Positions 1-61,343 of a stretch of DNA of 64,000 nt are shown here, in pieces. Positions within the stretch are counted from its first letter, which is position 1. Every line of letters begins with the position of its first letter. The DNA is from a virus. The notes under the pieces are model-generated. The model was not told the origin of the DNA, did not search any database, and saw only the letters and a list, made by a program, of their open reading frames with translations. Location: positions 3-64,002 of IMG/VR virus record IMGVR_UViG_3300028534_000015. The stretch is one strand, 5' to 3'. Position numbers and translations under genes: made by a program.

Positions 1-17
1 CTTTCTTAGTTAAATAT

Positions 18-125
18 GTGTATTTACCTATGAAAATAAATACACTGAATTATAAGTTCTTTTTTATTAAGAACGCCTTAGTTTAAACCATATTAATAAT
101 ATGTAAATAAAAAAAAGAGATATCC
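18..125 (-). promoter_or_regulatory. Early promoter plus hairpin leader cassette, copy A (drives a gene left of the window)
   Basis: Minus strand GATATC-polyT-TTATTTACATATTAT followed by GTTCTT..AAGAAC and GTGTATTTA-TTTTCATAGG-TAAATACAC hairpins; near-identical to copies at about 20.0, 21.7, 23.2 and 27.5 kb. Confidence 0.75.
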
Positions 126-153
126 TGTTAAGGAACCTGTAGGTTCCTTAACA
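126..153 (-). terminator. Intrinsic terminator hairpin after nrdA
   Basis: tgttaaggaacct/aggttccttaaca 13-bp inverted repeat abutting the stop codon, with a U-run shortly downstream on the minus strand. Confidence 0.8.
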
Positions 154-18546: not shown

Positions 18547-18567
18547 CTATGAGGAAGAACCTCATAG
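18547..18567 (-). terminator. Terminator of 18562..19455
   Basis: ctatgagg/cctcatag stem followed by a U-rich run on the minus strand. Confidence 0.7.
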
Positions 18568-19455
18568 CAGACCCGCTTTGTAAACATGTGTTTCTTTTAA
18601 CAGATCAATCGGATTGTCTATACTAAAACAAGAAGGTCTTTGTGTTAAAAGACCTTCTTCGTCTAATAGTTCCAATAACGGTTCTAATTTTGGATTTCTG
18701 CGCTTTAATATACTTTCCTGTACTTTATGTGTTCTAGATAACATACTTAAAGATGCCAAATTATCTTTATAGAACATTTCATTAAACTTATCAGCTCCAT
18801 AGAAATAACCATAAAGTAATACAAGTTTTTCTGGACTTACATCGATCTTTCTCGGATTAACTTTGTTAAACATCTTTTTAGTATGATCAACGATAATAGA
18901 TGTCATTATAAGACTATTTGAGTTTCTTACTCTTGAGTAAATAAAAATGCCTGCGATACTCGCAGGGAATGATAGTCTTTGACTTGAAGATACTTTTAGA
19001 AAGTATCTAAATTCTTCTTGTGTCGCTGTCTTTAAGAAATCAACAATTTTATTAGATGCTTCCAATAAACCGTTCTGATGATCTATAGCTGTAGTCCAGT
19101 TCGGTTCTTTGATAATGTCTTTATTATCATAAAGAACTATCGTTAGAGCTATGTCAATTTCAGATGTATTTTTAAATTCGTCATATAAGACATGGAACTT
19201 CCCTATTCTTCTACTCATCATACGCCAGATATAAAAAGTTTTTAAGTCTCTTTCTACCTTATTATAACATAACCATTTTTCACTACTCTTTAATAGAAAC
19301 AGTGTCATTTCTTTAATACCGTTTCTTAGTGACATAGTTTTAAGTCCTTTTTCCGCTTTCTTTTTTGACATTAAGTTACCAACAACGTATGTACTTAACC
19401 ATACTGTCTTAAAAACAAAATTAAATCCGTATTTATTAATATATTTTTGTAGCAT
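18562..19455 (-). CDS. Hypothetical early protein
   Basis: 297-aa ORF with AGGAG SD; no recognised motif. Confidence 0.7.
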   Translation of the reverse strand: MLQKYINKYGFNFVFKTVWLSTYVVGNLMSKKKAEKGLKTMSLRNGIKEMTLFLLKSSEKWLCYNKVERDLKTFYIWRMMSRRIGKFHVLYDEFKNTSEIDIALTIVLYDNKDIIKEPNWTTAIDHQNGLLEASNKIVDFLKTATQEEFRYFLKVSSSQRLSFPASIAGIFIYSRVRNSNSLIMTSIIVDHTKKMFNKVNPRKIDVSPEKLVLLYGYFYGADKFNEMFYKDNLASLSMLSRTHKVQESILKRRNPKLEPLLELLDEEGLLTQRPSCFSIDNPIDLLKETHVYKAGLL

Positions 19456-20009: not shown

Positions 20010-20116
20010 AATATCTCCTTTTTATGTATTCTGAATTATAAGTTCTTTTTTTTTTATTAAGAACACCTTAGCTTAAACTAATAAAATAATATATAAACAA
20101 AAAAAAAAGAGATATC
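20010..20116 (-). promoter_or_regulatory. Early promoter plus leader cassette, copy B
   Basis: TTGTTTATATATTAT (20086-20100), AGTTTAAGCTAAGGTGTTCTT..AAGAACTTATAATTCAG, AAGGAG SD. Confidence 0.75.
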
Positions 20117-26399: not shown

Positions 26400-27512
26400 T
26401 TATCTACTCAATAAGATTTGACGAACTTTCGCCTCATCCCTGAGTAGTTTTCTGAAAGCTTTTTTCTCCCATTTTTTGGCTTTCCGTGATTCGATAAGCC
26501 ATTTAAGGAACCTCTTAGAGTATTTATAATCTCTATATGATTTCCCTTTTGGGACCTCAAAATCAGAAAAATTAAGTTTCTCAACTTCAACTCCTCTGAA
26601 TTTTTTTACAACTGCGGTCGTTGTCTTTTTGACAAAGTCCTTTTTCTCCTTTTCAGGAGATTCGAATAAAGCGTAGTATGCCTTATCCGTATATTGCGGT
26701 CGCCCGGCGCGACCTATTTTTTGTTGGACGATTTCCCAATCGTCCCACTCGTTATAGACAACTATAACAGCATCGGCCGGGAAGTTGACTCCTTGTGCCA
26801 AGACGTTGCTTGACACAACTAATTCAAGTTCTCCGTTACGGAACTTGATTTGTGTCTCAAGTCGTTTTGACGTTGGGACGTTCGCCGATATAAAATCGGC
26901 TTTGTCCTTGTCTATTCCAAGACGAAGACACCAATCAAATACAGTGTCCTCGTCTGGGGCGTATTTTGTGAAGACGAGTATTGTATTAATCTCGCCTTCA
27001 CTTTTAAGTCTGTTGATTTCATCAACAGACACTTCTTTTTTTGACACCGTTTTGAACGGTGTCAATTTTATTTCTTCTATCTGAAGAAGTTCCTTAACTT
27101 CTTCAGATAGAGTGTCTGTTGCGGTAAGGAGTATAACCTCCTTACCGCTGTTTTTAAACTCAATAATATTATTGAGTAACATTAACCCTCTTTGAGGGTC
27201 GTTGATAAAATGACACTCATCAACGATAAGAGTGTCATACTCATCTGTTTGAAAACCAGAGAGGTTTTCAAATACAACGACAGCGTTCCCGCCGTTGTTG
27301 ATATGTACCTCTCCAGTTTCGATAGTCTTTATGGACTTGTAGTCCATAAAGACTTCATAAGCCAACTGTCGTGTTGGTACCGCAATTATAAAGCGGTCGC
27401 TTTCTGTGACCGCTTTGAATGTTTTGCCAGAGCCAGTCCCGCCGGTATATAAAACCGTACGAGACTTTTTATAGAGTTTTTTAAGTTCTATCTCTTTATT
27501 AATAAAATTCAT
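26400..27512 (-). CDS. Compact SF2 (DExH, Ski2-like) helicase
   Basis: TGSGKT, IVDECH, LTAT, LAQGVNFPA, QKIGRAGR motifs. Confidence 0.9.
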   Translation of the reverse strand: MNFINKEIELKKLYKKSRTVLYTGGTGSGKTFKAVTESDRFIIAVPTRQLAYEVFMDYKSIKTIETGEVHINNGGNAVVVFENLSGFQTDEYDTLIVDECHFINDPQRGLMLLNNIIEFKNSGKEVILLTATDTLSEEVKELLQIEEIKLTPFKTVSKKEVSVDEINRLKSEGEINTILVFTKYAPDEDTVFDWCLRLGIDKDKADFISANVPTSKRLETQIKFRNGELELVVSSNVLAQGVNFPADAVIVVYNEWDDWEIVQQKIGRAGRPQYTDKAYYALFESPEKEKKDFVKKTTTAVVKKFRGVEVEKLNFSDFEVPKGKSYRDYKYSKRFLKWLIESRKAKKWEKKAFRKLLRDEAKVRQILLSR

Positions 27513-27616
27513 ATAATATCTCCTTTTTATGAATTCTAAATTATAAGTTCTTTTTTATTAAGAACGTCTTAGTTTAAACTATTAAAATAATATATAAACA
27601 AAAAAAAAGAGATATC
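27513..27616 (-). promoter_or_regulatory. Early promoter plus leader cassette, copy C
   Basis: TTGTTTATATATTAT (27587-27601), AGTTTAAACTAAGACGTTCTT..AAGAACTTATAATT, AAGGAG SD. Confidence 0.75.
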
Positions 27617-29318: not shown

Positions 29319-29349
29319 TGTATCCTAGCCGTAAACAGGCTAGGATACA
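29319..29349 (-). terminator. Terminator of 29340..30266
   Basis: tgtatcctagcc/ggctaggataca 12-bp stem. Confidence 0.7.
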
Positions 29350-30266
29350 ATAAATGTGTTTATTGAAGCATACAGGTCTCTAAGTTCCAACCACTTCTCT
29401 TGTGATTTAGCTGTAAATACAAGTTTAGTTTTCTTATAAACATTAACATTAGAAGTTGTTTTAAGAAGACTTATAAATATAAGAGGATCGTCAAGAGAAG
29501 CAACAAGCAGATTCTTTAAACCAAGTCCCATAATACTATTTGAGATAATAGTAGAAATAGCTGGAGCTGTTAATCTTGTGATTCTTCCAGATTTCGGTAG
29601 TTCTTTAAATATAAGACTTAACTCATTAAATGTCTCTGTTGGTGTTTTGACATTGACTAAAGTCTCAACAACTTCTTTAGATTCTTTAATACCTACTGTC
29701 ATTTTAGCTGTTAAGACTTCAAGTACGTCTTTACTAGATTCTGGAAACATCATAGACGCAAAATGATATCCTAAAACAATTTTAAGACTTTCTGCATCGT
29801 ATTGGTTTAAACGTAAATCTCCAGAAATAATGTTAGAGAAAACATTTACCATAACTTTACCAATATGGGTAAGTGTATCAGAAGGAATATTTTCATTTAG
29901 ATGGTACGCTGTAAGATCTGTATACATGTTTATAATGTCAAACATTGTATAATCTCTTATGTAAGGTTTTATTTCTTCTGTCTCATGAGGTAGTTTACTC
30001 TTCATGATGTTTCTAATATCAATAAAGAATAGCTTTGTATTACTAAAGCTATTAATTATATAAGGTAGAGGTAGCTGTGGAATTTTTTCTTCATCTTGTA
30101 AAATACCTGTTAAAAATATCTTTTTAACATTTTCAGAATTTTCAAATTCATAATTTAAACCTTTTGTAAAGTTATTCTTATAAAACTCTTTTAAGGTGTC
30201 CTCTATTTTTACTTTAGCTTTGTCTGAAATATTCCAGATAAAATTATTATTAGGAGATGCAATCAT
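29340..30266 (-). CDS. Conserved phiKZ-like protein, possibly virion-associated
   Basis: 308-aa ORF with own late-type motif upstream; IPQLPLPYI..FFIDIR segment. Confidence 0.55.
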   Translation of the reverse strand: MIASPNNNFIWNISDKAKVKIEDTLKEFYKNNFTKGLNYEFENSENVKKIFLTGILQDEEKIPQLPLPYIINSFSNTKLFFIDIRNIMKSKLPHETEEIKPYIRDYTMFDIINMYTDLTAYHLNENIPSDTLTHIGKVMVNVFSNIISGDLRLNQYDAESLKIVLGYHFASMMFPESSKDVLEVLTAKMTVGIKESKEVVETLVNVKTPTETFNELSLIFKELPKSGRITRLTAPAISTIISNSIMGLGLKNLLVASLDDPLIFISLLKTTSNVNVYKKTKLVFTAKSQEKWLELRDLYASINTFIVS

Positions 30267-30309
30267 TTTAATCCTTTATTTTTATTCAATTAAACCAAAA
30301 AAAAACTTC

Positions 30310-32362: not shown

Positions 32363-34531
32363 CTAATCTAAAATATCTTCTAGATCTTCTTTATGTGCAA
32401 TCTCAACACCACCAATACCTATGATTTCTTCCATAACAGTTAACGGTTTATCATCTTTATACGGTCCTGGATTGATTCGTTTGATGTCAAACGGATCTTC
32501 TGCTGTTACAATTTTACCACAAATTCTTTTATGTGTGTAGATATTTACAGATCTATTACGTAAATCTGCAAATCCTTCAGGACCAACATATGCATGACTT
32601 AACCTACTTTCAGCTTCTCCGTGTTTTACAGGATTTGGAGAAAACGGAAAACGTGTTCTCTCTGCTTTTGAATTACTTGTAGGAACACCGAAATGATTAA
32701 CATGTGCGGAATTAGTAGCGAGCCACGAATCACCTATCTTACTTAGAACTAACATATATGTAGTAATAACCTCAATAGGTGATTCAGTCGTCTCCCATTT
32801 ACCTCTAATATTATAACGTAAAGGTTTAGGAGGTATGAAATATACAGAGTTTCTAATTCTTTCAATCATTTCGTCTTTAGGTATTTTACTGTCCATAGGA
32901 ACAATAAATCTAAATCCTTTATGAATAATTTCCTGAAGAACTTCTATTTTTTCTTCATAAGTTGCATTTTTCCAGATCTGATAGTCCTGCAACTCTAGAA
33001 GTTTGATGAGATCTATTAGGAACTCATATTCTTTCAAGAAGAAGTTTTTATGTTTCTTCTTAAACTTAGAAATGTTAAAGAGATCTATGTTTTCACGTAA
33101 ACATTTCTCTTTAAATCGCTCACCAAGTGTTTTCTGAAGATATCCAATCGTTCCATTAAAGATAACTCCCGGGTTCATCCTACCTGCTATAGATTTAGCT
33201 TCCATAATGTAGTCAAGTCCGTTGAGATATTCGTCAGGAACAACGCCACCGATAACACCTTTGTTACCATACAGTCCTGTTACTTTCATACCTTTTTTAA
33301 GTGTGTGTGTGAACTCAACAACAATCTTAACATAGTATAGATCTAACTTATCAAGTCCTTTTGTTTTAACAATGGATTCGTCTAAAATAGATCTAAAATA
33401 GACTGCTTCATTATGAAGCTTGTGCGAAAGAGGAATTCCTTTATAGTCTCTCTTTATTTTGTCTATTGTTTCAACAAACTGTTTCGCGTAAGCTTTATAT
33501 GCATTTGCATACTTTTCTAACTGTCCAAAAGCGTCATGATGCGAGGCAACTTTTTTACCCTTTGGGTTCTTTAAGACAATAATGTCAACAACTTTACCTT
33601 TAGGTTTATTGACATTATAAAGTCTATCAAATTCAGGATCAAGACATTGTAAGTGAGCATTACTATATGTTGAAATGTAATGCCCGGCAGAACCTATTTT
33701 AGAATCAGTCCCGTCACTTTTAAATGTACTTGGTGGTAATGATCGTGTCGCAAAAACAACCGTGTCATCTATAATCTCACCTAAGTCAGGAAAGACTTTA
33801 TAATTTTCATCGTCGCCAAATGCATTTAATGGTATGTTGTTATACCCTGTCATACCTTCAATTGTTTGGTATGTTGTAAACTCTCCTCTTTTACTAAGAG
33901 ATTCTGTAATGATCACAGTATCTTCAGCAACATGTTTATGTGATATAAGAGCGCCTGTTACGTTTAAACCAAACCCTACTTCACCATCACCTTTGTCAGA
34001 ATTTGTTCTTGACAAATATGTCCCAGCTTCTAGAGTATCGCCATATTCAACATCGTCTAATATAGGTTCTGGTTTATGGTTGAAACCAAATTTAGGATTA
34101 TGTTTTTCAATATACGGTATATTCATAAAATCAATCTGGTTGGTTTCTCTGTCGTGATAAATCACGATTTTTTCACAAACAGTGTTGATTCCGTCTTTAT
34201 ATGGTGAATAATATCTATCTATAATAGAAAGTATCGTACTGTCATGTGGAAGTCTTCGCGAGAATAGTGTCTCACCAAAATCATGCTCTAAACCACTTAG
34301 TGTGATAGGCGGTTCAGAGTTTTTAAGTGTTGAAACATACTGACCGAAGAACCCAAAGAACATAGCGTATCTTGACGATGAAACATTTTCTCCAAAGTTC
34401 GCCATACCTGAAAAACCTAAGTAGCGTTTATTAAGTTTAACAACGTCTAAAAGTTCTTCGAAAGATAAATCTTCCAACGGTCTTTTGTTTTTTGCCATAG
34501 TATCTCCTTTTTTATTATACAAATAATACAT
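32363..34531 (-). CDS. rpoB: Non-virion RNA polymerase beta C-terminal subunit (phiKZ gp71-73-like), uninterrupted
   Basis: SSSRYAMF, AEDTVIITES, GMKVTGLYGNKGVI, GRMNPG, HGEAE motifs. Confidence 0.92.
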   Translation of the reverse strand: MYYLYNKKGDTMAKNKRPLEDLSFEELLDVVKLNKRYLGFSGMANFGENVSSSRYAMFFGFFGQYVSTLKNSEPPITLSGLEHDFGETLFSRRLPHDSTILSIIDRYYSPYKDGINTVCEKIVIYHDRETNQIDFMNIPYIEKHNPKFGFNHKPEPILDDVEYGDTLEAGTYLSRTNSDKGDGEVGFGLNVTGALISHKHVAEDTVIITESLSKRGEFTTYQTIEGMTGYNNIPLNAFGDDENYKVFPDLGEIIDDTVVFATRSLPPSTFKSDGTDSKIGSAGHYISTYSNAHLQCLDPEFDRLYNVNKPKGKVVDIIVLKNPKGKKVASHHDAFGQLEKYANAYKAYAKQFVETIDKIKRDYKGIPLSHKLHNEAVYFRSILDESIVKTKGLDKLDLYYVKIVVEFTHTLKKGMKVTGLYGNKGVIGGVVPDEYLNGLDYIMEAKSIAGRMNPGVIFNGTIGYLQKTLGERFKEKCLRENIDLFNISKFKKKHKNFFLKEYEFLIDLIKLLELQDYQIWKNATYEEKIEVLQEIIHKGFRFIVPMDSKIPKDEMIERIRNSVYFIPPKPLRYNIRGKWETTESPIEVITTYMLVLSKIGDSWLATNSAHVNHFGVPTSNSKAERTRFPFSPNPVKHGEAESRLSHAYVGPEGFADLRNRSVNIYTHKRICGKIVTAEDPFDIKRINPGPYKDDKPLTVMEEIIGIGGVEIAHKEDLEDILD

Positions 34532-46691: not shown

Positions 46692-48233
46692 TTATCCTTT
46701 TTTTAAAATATGTGATACAATACTGCTTTTAAAATAAGCTGTTTTAATTCCTTTTGTAGGAAATTCTAAATTAGTGTCAATAACTTTTTCATCACTATTA
46801 TCAACAACGAGCAACTCTTTCAAGCTAAGAAACTCATCTTTACATGTATCGTTTATTTTTTCTTTTGCTTTTGTAGATAGTAATTCGCTGTTATTAATTA
46901 TACTAAAAGCCAGTCTGTAAATTCCATTTAACGGTAATGTTTTATTTAAAACAACATCTAAGTTAGGTTTAACAATTACAGTATCAGTAGATAAAGCTGT
47001 ATTTTTATCAAAAACACGTATGTTAAAAATAGACTGGAAAGGTTCCGATAAATCTTCATTTTCACATTTCATTAAAATTTCTAACATTTCATCTGTAAAC
47101 GAATACTCTGGGAGATCACTAAGGTTAAACAAAACATCTCCAACTTTTGTATCTGACGTTATTGAGAATAAAATAGTTAATAAAATATAGAATGGACCGA
47201 TATGTTTTATTGTATAATGTTTGTCTGTAGAAGGAATAGTAAGATAATCATTGACATAAAAATCTTCTATAAACAATAAAGCATTTTTATCGAAACCAAA
47301 ATCTGTATCAACTTTAGCGATGCTGTCTAACCATAAATCTAGTTTTTCTTTAGATCTATCATAAATATTTTCTGTAGATATTACAGTTCTAAATGCTTTA
47401 TCTAACATCAACTGCCAGACATATGGCTGATATCTAAATTCCATCGTCGTTGGTATTTTCATAAATAACTCATATTTAAACTCTGCTTCCCACATCTCTG
47501 TTTCTTTATCAAATGATTTTTTAGTATCTAAAATATCATCTGTAAAGTTACCTATCAATTCTTTTTGGACTTCTTTAAAGACTATAGATGATTTATCTAA
47601 ATCTCCATTCATAGGAGACATTAGTGAATACCTTTCATCAGATATAGAACGTATATAATCATTCAGTGTTATTTCACTATTTGTAGTTTTGTTTTTATTA
47701 TAAACGATATTACCCATAAGTGCTACAGCAAATTTAGGTAATGTTATATAATAAATAACATCATGAGAAGTCATGAGTCGGTTCGAAATCCTTCTAACTC
47801 TAAGGTTATTCAAAATACCGACCACTTCATTTTTAAATTTTGATTTAACTTTAAAAGATAATTCAATTTTATGCTGGACATATAAGTTCTTTATATAAAA
47901 ATCTGTTTCTCTATCGTAAAGTAATGGAAGTGAACGATTATATTTATAATCTGTATCGTTTATAGATTGTTTATCGATATCGACAGTATATTCAACTTCA
48001 ATAACAGATAGTCTATTATGATTTTTTTCATTAAGTGTTTGGTCTCCAACATTCCAGTTTTTATTAATGTATGGATTATCTGAATTCACAATAGAAATAT
48101 GTGTATCTAAATCCATAAGGAATAATCGTTTTATATCATTCATAATAGTTACTATAGCTGGACCTACTACTGTACTTTCTAAGTCGTTTATTGGTGTTCG
48201 AAATTTTATCATAGTATCTCCTATATAATTCAA
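46692..48233 (-). CDS. Virion structural protein
   Basis: 513 aa; FRYQPYVWQ motif; structural block. Confidence 0.65.
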   Translation of the reverse strand: MNYIGDTMIKFRTPINDLESTVVGPAIVTIMNDIKRLFLMDLDTHISIVNSDNPYINKNWNVGDQTLNEKNHNRLSVIEVEYTVDIDKQSINDTDYKYNRSLPLLYDRETDFYIKNLYVQHKIELSFKVKSKFKNEVVGILNNLRVRRISNRLMTSHDVIYYITLPKFAVALMGNIVYNKNKTTNSEITLNDYIRSISDERYSLMSPMNGDLDKSSIVFKEVQKELIGNFTDDILDTKKSFDKETEMWEAEFKYELFMKIPTTMEFRYQPYVWQLMLDKAFRTVISTENIYDRSKEKLDLWLDSIAKVDTDFGFDKNALLFIEDFYVNDYLTIPSTDKHYTIKHIGPFYILLTILFSITSDTKVGDVLFNLSDLPEYSFTDEMLEILMKCENEDLSEPFQSIFNIRVFDKNTALSTDTVIVKPNLDVVLNKTLPLNGIYRLAFSIINNSELLSTKAKEKINDTCKDEFLSLKELLVVDNSDEKVIDTNLEFPTKGIKTAYFKSSIVSHILKKG

Positions 48234-58189: not shown

Positions 58190-59635
58190 CTAAGCTCCTA
58201 ATAAAGTAAATTTTTCATGGTGTTTATGTAAGTCATTTTCTGACGCTTCTTCCAACTCTTTCATAAGTCTTGTATATGTGAATGAATCAATATTCCACGG
58301 CATAATGTTAGACAAGAGAGCCATGGTTTTTCTGTCTCCTATATAGAGCTCAATAATCTCTTCTAGGTATTCTATATTAGATATCATCTCTCTCTTTGTT
58401 TTTCTGTCAATATTAGATTCACGCAACTGCCTGATTAAATCAAATTTTAGTCTTTTTGCTCTTTGCATAAAGATATCATATGTCATTTGTTCGTGGTCAT
58501 TTTCTTGTGTAGTTAAAGTTATCGCTGTCGATATAAAAGTAAAAACAGCAATAACGGACGATACTGTAAGCGCAATTAAAGGCATAAAAGTCATGATTAG
58601 AATAAGAAAGAAGTATACAACAAAAATAACAAATGATGTTGTAAGTGCAAAAGATAAACCAGGTTGTCTATCAGCATAGAAAGTATTGATTTTATGTAAA
58701 CCTGAAATTATATCTTTACCAACACCAAATCGTGACGCGAACTGATCTGCTAGTTGTTCATTGTCAGATTTAAAGTAATTGTTATCCTCATTCATAATAT
58801 GAATAAGTCTTGAAGTAAGTGCTGTAAACATACTTACTGTGTCGCCCTCTTCATAAATCTCATTTCCTTGCGTATTTCTTAAAGTAAGCCTAAGCGCTTC
58901 TCTTGCATCTTTTTTACGAAGCGTGTCTGTAAAAGTTTTAACAAGTACAGTTACGTCCGCAAGTCTACGGTAATCGTTCCCCAATATTTCAAATTGATGT
59001 CCTATTTCATGTAAAAGGAATGCTGTGAATTCTCTAGGTGTTACATTAATATTTTTGAAATACGTAACAAAATCTGAAACGATAACTACTGTGGCGTCTT
59101 TTGGAAAGTTTTTAACTGTTGCTTTATCGTAATCGATTACTATTTTTCCGACATTGACAGCTTGTTTGATTTTCTTGGTTGCTTCCGAAAGATTAACCAT
59201 AATAGTTGCTTCATCTTCATACACATCAAAAATATCGTCAATATTCTTTAATTTACTCGTACAATCTTTTGACTTCTTACATGAGTCTGTGTATTGTTTA
59301 AGCCATTTGTAGACATCCTCTCGCATAGGATCTATCGCATTATTAAGTCCTGTTGACACTGTGTAAATTCCATAACCAAAATCACTTCCAACATGTTTGA
59401 ATGGAATTCCGAATCTTTTATGAAGAATGTTATCGACTTCTTTAAAAATATTCTTAACAGAAGTACGTTTCATAGCGGACATACTATCTTTATCGTCCAT
59501 TCTAATAACAGATTCCTGAAGTAACTCAAATTGTTTTGTGAGCTCGTCCACTACAGGATCATCTATTTGAGTTTTAATAGACTCTATGCCTGGAACAAGA
59601 TCATTGGTTTTTTTTAATAAATCATCTAAATACAT
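58190..59635 (-). CDS. Virion protein with zincin HExxH motif and transmembrane hairpin (phiKZ gp84-like)
   Basis: LLHEIGHQF, downstream NEQLADQFASRFG, long hydrophobic stretch FALTTSF...FISTAI, PGIES processing-like site. Confidence 0.7.
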   Translation of the reverse strand: MYLDDLLKKTNDLVPGIESIKTQIDDPVVDELTKQFELLQESVIRMDDKDSMSAMKRTSVKNIFKEVDNILHKRFGIPFKHVGSDFGYGIYTVSTGLNNAIDPMREDVYKWLKQYTDSCKKSKDCTSKLKNIDDIFDVYEDEATIMVNLSEATKKIKQAVNVGKIVIDYDKATVKNFPKDATVVIVSDFVTYFKNINVTPREFTAFLLHEIGHQFEILGNDYRRLADVTVLVKTFTDTLRKKDAREALRLTLRNTQGNEIYEEGDTVSMFTALTSRLIHIMNEDNNYFKSDNEQLADQFASRFGVGKDIISGLHKINTFYADRQPGLSFALTTSFVIFVVYFFLILIMTFMPLIALTVSSVIAVFTFISTAITLTTQENDHEQMTYDIFMQRAKRLKFDLIRQLRESNIDRKTKREMISNIEYLEEIIELYIGDRKTMALLSNIMPWNIDSFTYTRLMKELEEASENDLHKHHEKFTLLGA

Positions 59636-59659
59636 TTCTAACCTTTATTAATATTCAAT

Positions 59660-59810
59660 TAAACCAAAAAAAAACAATCAAATAAGAGCTGTCTTTTGAC
59701 AGCTCTTTTTATATTCCCTAATATTAACGTCCCGGGGTAGACGATAGCTGACAGAGATTAGGAGATAAACTCTATCAGTTATAGTAGTTTAGAATTAACT
59801 CTAAACTATA
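59660..59810 (-). ncRNA. Candidate early small RNA with anti-Shine-Dalgarno loop
   Basis: Early promoter motif at 59814-59828 points into an ORF-free segment with three hairpins and a terminator at 59684-59707; G-U wobbles favour the minus strand. Confidence 0.55.
59684..59707. terminator. Terminator hairpin closing the candidate sRNA
   Basis: aagagctgtc/gacagctctt 10-bp stem, T-rich tails on both strands. Confidence 0.7.
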
Positions 59811-59897
59811 ATAATAATATGTAAATAATAAAAATTGAAATGTCAAAAACATAAAATTACTTTTAACTTTTAAGGTGATAATGTATGAGGATAAACA

Positions 59898-61343
59898 ATG
59901 GGTAAAGAAGTAGAATGGATAGAACATAAATTCTCAAAATTTTTCACAACAAAAACTGGTAAAGATATGCATCTTGTAAAAGAGAGAATACACTATAAAG
60001 ATGGTTCATGGGAACCTAATCTAAAGTTTATTGAAGATTTTGAAAGACCATTTTGGGTAACAAAAAAGTTTCATAGAAACCATAAAGATAAAAAAGAGTA
60101 TGAAGATTATAATAAGTTAGATATTTTTTATTCAAAGGAGTCTGTGCTTCCTAATGAAATCGCAAGAAGAATAGGTCTAACAGGTTATAGAAAGAATAAC
60201 TATAGAGACATACTTAAGTCACCTTATGTTTATGGTTCTGATATACCGTCTACAACTATAATGTCTTATATGTATGCTAAAAAGAATGACGGTAGGGTTT
60301 CAAAATATAGTGTAGCAACATTTGATATTGAAGCAGATGTTATCACAAAAGAAATAACTATTGTTTCCACACATTACGAAGACAAACTTGTAATGGGTGT
60401 TAATAGACGTCTTTTTAGACATATGAAACAAAAGTTAACCGATGGTGAAATAAAAACTAAAATAGAAGAAACATATAGAAAACACGCACCGGATAAGTAT
60501 AAGAACATAAAGTTTTTAATACATATTGGTGACGAAGTATCTGCGATTAGGTATGTCTTCACATTTTTACATAAAGCTAAACCTGATTTTCTTGCCATAT
60601 GGAATATGGCTTACGATATCCCAACAATTGTTAAAAGACTTAATGAACACGGAATTCCTCCTGAAAGTATCTTCTGTGATCCAGATGTTCCTGATGATTA
60701 TAAAAGATTTAATTTTAAAGAAGGGCGTTCAAAAGCAAAGAAAGCTGACGGTCAAGTTATCAACATAGAAATACAAGACAGGTGGCATGTTGTTGATGTT
60801 ATTGCTTCTTTCTATATTATAGACGCTATGTGTGTTTATTCTATTGTTAGAGCAGGAGCACAGAAACTCAATGCTGGTTATGGAATAGATAATGTATGTA
60901 GAGAAGAAAAGGTTTCTACTAAAATGTTTATTCCAGGAACAATAGATCCTGACTCTGTATCAAAACCGCAATGGCATATTGAAATGTCTAGAGATTTTCC
61001 AATCGAATATTGTGCATACAACGCAAACGATAATACGATGATGACAGACCTATTAGAAAAGACATCCGATTTATCATTTAACTTACCTACACTAGCAGAC
61101 CATAGTAGTTTTGATTACTTTAACTCTTTGACTAGAAAAATCGCTGATAAGTTATTCGTAACTTTATTAGATGATAAGAAACAAAGGAGAGTGCTAGGTA
61201 ATAAACCTTACGTAGCGGATAAAGATGAACTACTCGGTAGGGACGACTGGATTATTACATTAGAAAGTTCAAGGATTGTTGAAGAAGAAAAAGATATATT
61301 TATGGAAGAAAGAAAAATAAAAAAAAATGCGATATCATTATGA
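59898..61343 (+). CDS. Split family-B DNA polymerase, 3'-5' exonuclease subunit (phiKZ gp82-like), C-terminus appears short
   Basis: ATFDIEAD (ExoI), IWNMAYDI (ExoII), YNANDN (ExoIII); no DxxSxYP motif before the stop. Confidence 0.85.
   Translation: MGKEVEWIEHKFSKFFTTKTGKDMHLVKERIHYKDGSWEPNLKFIEDFERPFWVTKKFHRNHKDKKEYEDYNKLDIFYSKESVLPNEIARRIGLTGYRKNNYRDILKSPYVYGSDIPSTTIMSYMYAKKNDGRVSKYSVATFDIEADVITKEITIVSTHYEDKLVMGVNRRLFRHMKQKLTDGEIKTKIEETYRKHAPDKYKNIKFLIHIGDEVSAIRYVFTFLHKAKPDFLAIWNMAYDIPTIVKRLNEHGIPPESIFCDPDVPDDYKRFNFKEGRSKAKKADGQVINIEIQDRWHVVDVIASFYIIDAMCVYSIVRAGAQKLNAGYGIDNVCREEKVSTKMFIPGTIDPDSVSKPQWHIEMSRDFPIEYCAYNANDNTMMTDLLEKTSDLSFNLPTLADHSSFDYFNSLTRKIADKLFVTLLDDKKQRRVLGNKPYVADKDELLGRDDWIITLESSRIVEEEKDIFMEERKIKKNAISL

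Follow-up and report, generated by a model that had tools for sequence, protein, structure and literature searches.

The question raised by this locus is why a phage should place an early promoter in front of a stretch of DNA that has no open reading frame. The ORF-free cassette sits in the 262-bp gap between the divergent genes 58190..59635 (minus strand) and 59898..61343 (plus strand) of the window, by which we mean the whole stretch of 64,000 nucleotides analysed here, bases 3-64002 of the 156,170-bp IMG/VR viral contig IMGVR_UViG_3300028534_000015. All positions are those of the window unless they are given as genome positions. The contig has a G+C content of 31.7% and encodes split RNA polymerase (RNAP) beta-like subunits as well as a split family B DNA polymerase. 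The N-terminal part of that polymerase has just 30-34% identity with the proteins of known jumbo phages, phiKZ-like or otherwise, and because its nearest public proteins are 48-53% identical, the phage is one without a close sequenced relative. The IMG/VR record labels the contig linear and 58% complete. Its two ends (window 1-135 and genome 156040-156170) are near-identical over ~127 nt that correspond to an early cassette, with one mismatch just outside, and they could represent either a repeated cassette or an assembly closing on itself. The original prediction was that the ORF-free cassette produces an early small RNA that displays an anti-Shine-Dalgarno (anti-SD) loop and regulates translation.

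The 15-bp early motif that had been assigned to the minus strand at 59814-59828 is indeed present there, with the sequence TTATTTACATATTAT. When up to two mismatches were allowed, TTATTTACATATTAT was found nine times in the window, always on the minus strand, against an expectation of 2.2, and none of 100 shuffled sequences reached nine matches. Across the 156-kb contig, an iterated position weight matrix (PWM) identified 22 early-promoter sites. Twenty of these are on the minus strand, which is the main coding strand, and the site at 59814-59828, with 26.6 bits, is in the top three. Such sites mostly lie behind a terminator hairpin and a T-run, 30-100 nt before an SD sequence and a start codon. 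The motif is followed by tattat-AGTTTA, the same start sequence as at the other cassettes, as had been stated, and the seventh base past the motif is a purine at all 20 minus-strand sites (10 A and 10 G), usually followed by GTTTA. An A/T-rich motif of ~10 nt centred near -10 is typical of the virion-polymerase early promoters of jumbo phages that have their own multisubunit RNAPs (PMC7598289). In AR9, the mapped early consensus of the virion RNAP is AAATATATATTAT-(6N)-G, and transcription in AR9, phiKZ, and phiR1-37 starts 6 nt past the consensus element (PMC5312081). The core of the early motif in the present phage, ATATATTAT-(6N)-purine, agrees with the mapped core of AR9, and because both motifs have the ATATATTAT core and a purine at a 6-nt spacing, the +1 position was placed at A59807 by analogy. 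The site therefore resembles a jumbo-phage virion-RNAP early promoter both in being an over-represented A/T-rich element and in having a start 6 nt downstream, the latter at an inferred position. Many early transcripts open with the palindrome AGTTTAAACT (for instance, at 27570-27585 and 20070-20085), which might be an operator at early-promoter start sites; at 59786-59807 its half-sites, AGTTTA and TAAACT, are set 10 nt apart and form the 5' hairpin. The AR9-type late motif, AACA-(6N)-TR, was not enriched upstream of genes (4 found versus 5 expected).

Table 1. Features of the cassette and its neighbours (window positions)
Feature	Position	Strand	Description or basis
Family B DNA polymerase, N-terminal (exonuclease) part	59898..61343	+	Divergent neighbour; context, outside the RNA
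Early (virion-RNAP-type) promoter	59814..59836	-	Core TTATTTACATATTAT at 59814-59828 plus A/T-rich upstream columns
Inferred transcription start, A	59807	-	Seventh base past the motif; by analogy with AR9, phiKZ, and phiR1-37
Predicted 5' hairpin, from +1	59786..59807	-	8-9 bp, loop GUUAAU; from the fold
Predicted hairpin 2	59748..59778	-	9-bp stem CUGAUAGAG/CUCUGUCAG, one U-G pair
Predicted loop of hairpin 2	59757-59769	-	13 nt, UUUAUCUCCUAAU; apex UCUCC
Predicted hairpin 3	59728..59743	-	CGUCU/GGACG, 5 bp, one U-G pair, 6-nt loop
A/U-rich single-stranded linker	59708..59727	-	AUUAGGG at 59716-59722 is a possible pairing partner for the hairpin 2 loop
Intrinsic terminator	59666..59707	-	10-bp stem, 5 G-C pairs, loop AAAA (59684-59707), then UUAUUUGAUUG and a U9 run (59666-59674)
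Second-class promoter-like module TTTTGGTTTAATTGAATA	59652..59669	-	TAATTGAAT at 59653-59661; ahead of 58190..59635
481-aa conserved protein, HEIGH motif, phrog_2767	58190..59635	-	Downstream gene; context, outside the RNA

A transcript that starts at A59807 would be ~132 nt long if it ended past the terminator stem and up to 142 nt long if it ended in the U9 run, and AR9 RNAPs have been reported to halt at predicted terminators (PMC5312081; PMC7598289). The claim that this transcript is free of ORFs stood up, as there is not a single AUG or GUG on the minus strand from 59807 to 59672, and no micro-ORF was found on either strand of the cassette. The hairpins and the terminator, which is a strong one, were all located where they had been predicted (Table 1). 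The minus strand folds into three hairpins and a terminator stem with a minimum free energy (MFE) of -43.8 kcal/mol (z = -5.3), and none of 200 shuffled sequences was as stable. Around the locus, the terminator scan returned 6 terminator-like sites in 4 kb versus 1.0 expected. ARAGORN detected no tRNA or tmRNA, and no Rfam family was matched at gathering scores in the window or in the rest of the genome. A pseudoknot between the loop of hairpin 2 and the AUUAGGG of the linker was considered, with a duplex energy of -6.6 kcal/mol, but it was rejected because 7% of shuffled linkers pair with the loop equally well, so that the linker-loop duplex is not significant.

The comparison with relatives suggests how the cassette is delimited. 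Two metagenomic relatives, L012 and L014, have the same gene order as the cassette locus, with flanking proteins that are 39% and 48-49% identical to those of the present phage (39% for the L012 ortholog of 58190..59635). Their intergenic gaps are 109 bp (L012) and 95 bp (L014), versus 262 bp here, and both keep the T-run and a TGATTTAAA-like segment before the gene, with the hairpin cassette absent. The extra DNA in the present phage amounts to ~155-165 bp, which is roughly the promoter, the RNA, and the terminator. Because the relatives keep the gene-proximal segment and are without these ~155-165 bp, the promoter behaves together with the RNA and the terminator like a single insertion. The ends of this insertion could not be placed by a three-way alignment of the intergenic regions, which are too A/T-rich, and there are no direct repeats or target-site duplications around the cassette. 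No near-identical DNA was found in the phage collection and no copy of a 21-mer of loop and stem in viral contigs, and a 19-mer had four matches in metagenome contigs, all in unrelated coding sequence with no flanking hairpin. A search with a covariance model built from the single sequence, covering its own genome, 3 related viral records, and 7 loci, recovered only the cassette itself and a match in L012 that is the terminator of convergent genes. There were no relevant anti-SD hairpins in the loci of the relatives. Thus, conservation did not extend beyond one 97-99% identical strain, and the conserved structure or seed with covariation in relatives that would mark a trans-acting anti-SD sRNA was not found.

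The closely related strain was encountered at low depth in run X2, a DNA run from another study, which covers 59698-59814. It has 3 differences from the cassette in 117 nt, a divergence no lower than that of the flanking genes. One of these, T>C on the plus strand at 59779 and hence A>G in the RNA, converts an A.C opposition with 59747 into a G-C pair and lengthens the stem of hairpin 2 from 9 to 13 bp, and the MFE goes from -42.3 to -48.8 kcal/mol on the minus strand and from -40.6 to -43.0 kcal/mol on the plus strand. The variant is a single event that fits selection for structure. These results bear on the view that the cassette is a functionless remnant, that is, a promoter and a terminator that stayed behind after a small early gene was lost, with a coincidental anti-SD loop, or, in a variant of this view, an insulating terminator before a late promoter with an early promoter upstream by chance. 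A remnant would agree with the lineage specificity of the cassette, which is missing from the syntenic relatives and has no homologues, with the repetition and mobility of early cassettes in this genome, and with the unreduced divergence in run X2 (3/117 nt). However, a decayed ORF is unlikely to yield three clean hairpins (z = -5.3), the promoter is a perfect copy of the consensus, and the single visible variant strengthens a stem. In addition, an anti-SD hairpin with a stem of at least 6 bp would occur by chance in a given 135-nt stretch with a frequency of roughly 0.5%, as calculated from 11 such hairpins in coding sequence on both strands of ~142 kb. We therefore regard a remnant as quite improbable.

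The downstream gene had been said to have its own promoter-like motif after the terminator. Such a motif, TAATTGAAT, is present, but it is not a copy of the early motif, and no second early promoter with a PWM score of 3 bits or more was found between the terminator and the ATG at 59635. The identical 18-mer, TTTTGGTTTAATTGAATA, occurs behind another terminator hairpin at 30283-30300, before gene 29340..30266, whose leader is of the AAGGA type. Exact copies of TAATTGAAT number six in the contig, of which ~9% is intergenic, and all are in the sense orientation and 17-43 nt before a start codon (window 59653-59661 and 30285-30293; genome 65511, 67689, 94762, and 98839, in loci L016 and L017). 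The tail sheath gene stands behind one of these copies, and all five TAATTGAAT-led genes in the start-site table have an AAGGA-type SD. TAATTGAAT is probably a middle or late promoter element. Because the downstream gene has its own promoter-like motif of a different kind, the cassette stands alone, and judged by its sequence it is probably an orphan early sRNA gene that forms an independent unit.

The main rival to this sRNA reading is a cis-acting leader or attenuator. In that case, the early promoter would serve the 58190..59635 operon, the hairpins and the terminator would set the level of early read-through, via attenuation or put-like RNA-mediated antitermination, and the short RNA would be a by-product. 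The cassette lies directly upstream of the operon and on the same strand. Furthermore, two hairpins right after the start, followed by a terminator, are the layout of cis-acting antiterminator RNAs such as put of HK022, and the succession of promoter, structured RNA, terminator, and gene is repeated in another early unit of the genome (locus L015). Because the layout is shared with attenuators and is repeated in another early unit, a cis role for the operon is possible. In read-through transcripts only, the complementarity of the U9 and A8 runs (59666-59678 with 59603-59615) could also close the ribosome-binding site (RBS). These two segments form a 13-nt inverted repeat, 92% complementary, that brackets the RBS of 58190..59635, with the A8 run inside the first codons of the gene; the repeat is of low complexity and may be meaningless. 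Against a leader, the gene has its second-class promoter module past the terminator, identical to that at 30283-30300, and the orthologs in L012 and L014 do without the cassette, with an early PWM score of <9 bits at that position. Moreover, no Rfam leader or riboswitch was matched at threshold, and the folds show no alternative antiterminator pairing. A cis-acting leader is considered rather unlikely.

ORF-free units behind early promoters are not confined to this locus. Two further units were found elsewhere in the genome, and at least one of them has the layout of terminator, TAATTTAAT, and gene. Both are on the minus strand in locus L015. At genome 86520-87029, an early promoter (core 87015-87029) is followed by a structured ORF-free stretch of ~450 nt with a G+C content of 37% and an MFE of -145 kcal/mol, which ends at a 16-bp terminator and is followed by TAATTTAAT and a phosphatase-like gene with the SD AGGAGAUAAAA; this stretch had no match in Rfam at E values up to 1. 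At genome 85640-85959, an early promoter (core 85945-85959) is followed by ~300 nt without a convincing ORF, which contain a GGGGCUUCGCCCC hairpin and a CCUCCCCCUUUCCC run and end at the next early promoter.

The choice of strand deserves separate consideration. The plus strand of the cassette folds equally well (z = -6.5), and the strand can therefore not be chosen by the fold; in addition, the terminator at 59684-59707 scored on both strands and is thus bidirectional. The assignment to the minus strand rests on the logic of the promoter and the terminator. It had also been argued that imperfect pairs are G-U pairs on the minus strand and mismatches on the plus strand. The minus strand does have three G-U pairs, but the plus strand has one as well and the energies are equal, which leaves the argument real but weak. 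[quoted passage not shown] This would be consistent with the fold (z = -6.5), with a U-tract that comes closer behind the stem of the terminator when the plus strand is read, and with a sub-threshold match to Rfam MicX (RF01808) at 59671-59814, which spans the full model with 37.1 bits and an E value of 1.3e-4 for the whole window, the next-best sub-threshold match having an E value of 0.13. However, 37.1 bits is half of the gathering threshold of 75 bits, and MicX is an RNA from the 3'-UTR of Vibrio malG, a setting unrelated to the cassette (PMC1976385). The early PWM found no plus-strand site of 3 bits or more in or beside the cassette, and the last plus-strand hairpin has no U-tract after it. 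A plus-strand micro-ORF that would use the AGGAG at 59760 was also sought, and no ATG, GTG, or TTG follows 4-12 nt after it. Furthermore, 95-109 bp are enough for both divergent promoters in the relatives, so the cassette segment is dispensable for the polymerase gene. Function on the plus strand is therefore highly improbable. Membership in RF01808 was rejected both on the score (37.1 of the 75 bits required) and because the match is on the strand opposite to that given by the promoter and terminator logic, and the match is read as shared hairpin architecture.

If the minus-strand RNA is made, its most conspicuous element would be the loop of hairpin 2. In the predicted ensemble, the UCUCC apex is unpaired with a probability of 1.0, and the flanking UUA and UAA with a probability of ~0.2. 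The loop is complementary to the common RBS AGGAGAUA, which is carried, for example, by the leaders of 18562..19455 and 26400..27512, and the RBS matches cited for individual genes by the original prediction were correct; the minus strand of the window has seven copies of AGGAGATA. Compared with the SD consensus, AAAGGAGA(U/A)AAA, the loop complement AUUAGGAGAUAAA agrees at the core and on the downstream side and not on the upstream side. The suggestion that the RNA mimics the 3' end of 16S rRNA was not borne out, as nothing beyond the common CUCCU supports it. A scan of both strands of the 156-kb contig for hairpins that combine a stem of 6 bp or more with a loop containing CUCCU, UCUCC, or CCUCC yielded 14. 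Eleven are within genes, another is antisense to a genuine RBS, and a 9-bp intergenic hairpin at genome 135747 (plus strand) was read as a putative terminator, leaving hairpin 2 as the sole stable anti-SD hairpin that this genome has in an ORF-free transcript. Of 120 start regions, 12 match the loop over 8-11 nt, with duplexes of -11 to -14 kcal/mol, and the predicted targets include genes for an RNAP beta subunit, a helicase, a polymerase, a phosphatase-like protein, and a dNMP kinase; owing to the A/T-richness of the leaders, shuffled loops attain 12 matches of at least 8 nt in 5% of trials. Among the properties of trans-acting anti-SD sRNAs, the cassette thus has its own promoter, its own intrinsic terminator, and no ORF, and, according to the predictions, an unpaired seed complementary to target RBSs. 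The combination of an ORF-free unit of promoter, hairpins, and terminator with an RBS-complementary loop makes it probable that the product is a small regulatory RNA.

The start regions of this phage fall into two types, which is a new observation: a GGAG-containing SD is typical of early-proximal genes, defined as those whose start is no more than 2.5 kb downstream of a same-strand early promoter, and most other genes have an AAGGA-type SD. In the whole contig, the GGAG type was found in 28 of 37 early-proximal genes versus 23 of 83 others (Fisher p = 1.1e-6). Loop matches of at least 8 nt were likewise more frequent in the early-proximal genes (9/37 versus 3/83, p = 0.0012), and contiguous pairing of the loop with an AAGGA-type site is limited to four bases. 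Other explanations of the difference between the two RBS types are also possible. For two genes, the position of the SD suggests a start codon inside the longer ORF, namely ATG 48212 for 46692-48233 and ATG 34498 for 32363-34531.

These findings can be arranged in a mechanism in which the injected virion RNA polymerase would start at A59807, 6 nt past the ATATATTAT-type early promoter, and produce an RNA that folds into a 5' hairpin, a 9-bp hairpin that exposes UCUCC at its apex, and a third, small hairpin, and that ends at the intrinsic terminator just ahead of the promoter that the next gene has for itself. Through its C/U-rich loop, whose complement is AUUAGGAGAUAAA, the RNA would then pair with RBSs of the AGGAGAU type, which belong mostly to early-operon genes, and the translation of these genes would drop as the RNA accumulates, while AAGGA-type sites would be spared since they could pair over only 4 bp. 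An early RNA that is matched to the early RBS type could in this way exert delayed negative feedback on early translation. Counted against SD occlusion are the loop apex of just 5 nt and the A-U flanks, which are predicted to be mostly paired, and a general anti-SD RNA would need to be highly abundant in order to be effective. It is likely that a discrete short early RNA is made, and it is doubtful that it acts by occluding GGAG-type RBSs. Our best explanation as a whole, an independent gene for an early ncRNA of ~132-142 nt in a phiKZ/AR9-like jumbo phage with pairing to AGGAGAU RBSs, is a tentative one. The division of the RBSs leads to the prediction that the RNA would repress the GGAG-type class only, and if so, the temporal control of translation in phiKZ/AR9-like phages has an RNA layer.

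To our knowledge, regulatory RNAs of lytic phages are barely known, and we know of none that has been established in a jumbo phage of the phiKZ/AR9-like kind. An ORF-free unit that follows a consensus early promoter and is bounded by a terminator is a concrete and easily testable sRNA candidate, and what appears to be new is the combination of such a unit with the early programme of a jumbo phage. With the early units of AR9, phiKZ, and phiR1-37, the cassette has in common the A/T-rich -10 element, the ATATATTAT core, the purine start 6 nt further on, the boundary formed by a terminator, and the clustering on one strand (PMC5312081, PMC7598289). However, the units described in those phages encode proteins, and the cassette has no ORF. 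For the one sRNA predicted in phiKZ, a Northern blot did not detect the predicted length (PMC8244752). With MicX, the Vibrio cholerae sRNA from the malG 3'-UTR (RF01808; PMC1976385), the cassette shares a similar series of hairpins with A/U-rich linkers, but it is not a member of that family, given its score below the gathering threshold, the opposite strand, and the different genomic setting.

The nearest parallels in function are found outside jumbo phages. The Rsa sRNAs and RNAIII of Staphylococcus aureus have unpaired UCCC motifs that bind SD sequences, together with a 5' hairpin and a terminator (PMC2790875). The cassette RNA would share with them a dedicated promoter, the absence of an ORF, a hairpin at the 5' end, a hairpin loop rich in C and U, a rho-independent terminator, and a length of ~100-150 nt, and its predicted action, the occlusion of RBSs, is that of Hfq-independent sRNAs with C-rich loops. 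In contrast to the S. aureus RNAs, to which it has no sequence relation, it carries UCUCC(U) instead of UCCC and a single copy of the motif, and it is encoded by a lytic jumbo phage and presumably made by the virion RNA polymerase. In phage T4, the early endoribonuclease RegB cleaves early mRNAs at the GGAG of their SD sequences (PMC1702504, PMC3014915). A like division of RBS types between early-proximal genes and the remainder is seen in the present phage. It is conceivable, though rather improbable, that the sRNA from the virion-polymerase promoter is the RNA counterpart of RegB, its UCUCCU loop selectively masking the AGGAGAU RBSs of early operons and perhaps host mRNAs; if this were true, the RNA would set the moment at which early translation is shut down, and ribosomes would pass to genes with AAGGA-type sites. 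The analogy is one of logic only, as RegB is a nuclease and a protein and an antisense RNA loop is proposed here, but both would be early phage functions aimed at the GGAG-type RBSs typical of early genes, and such a logic would help the shift away from early expression.
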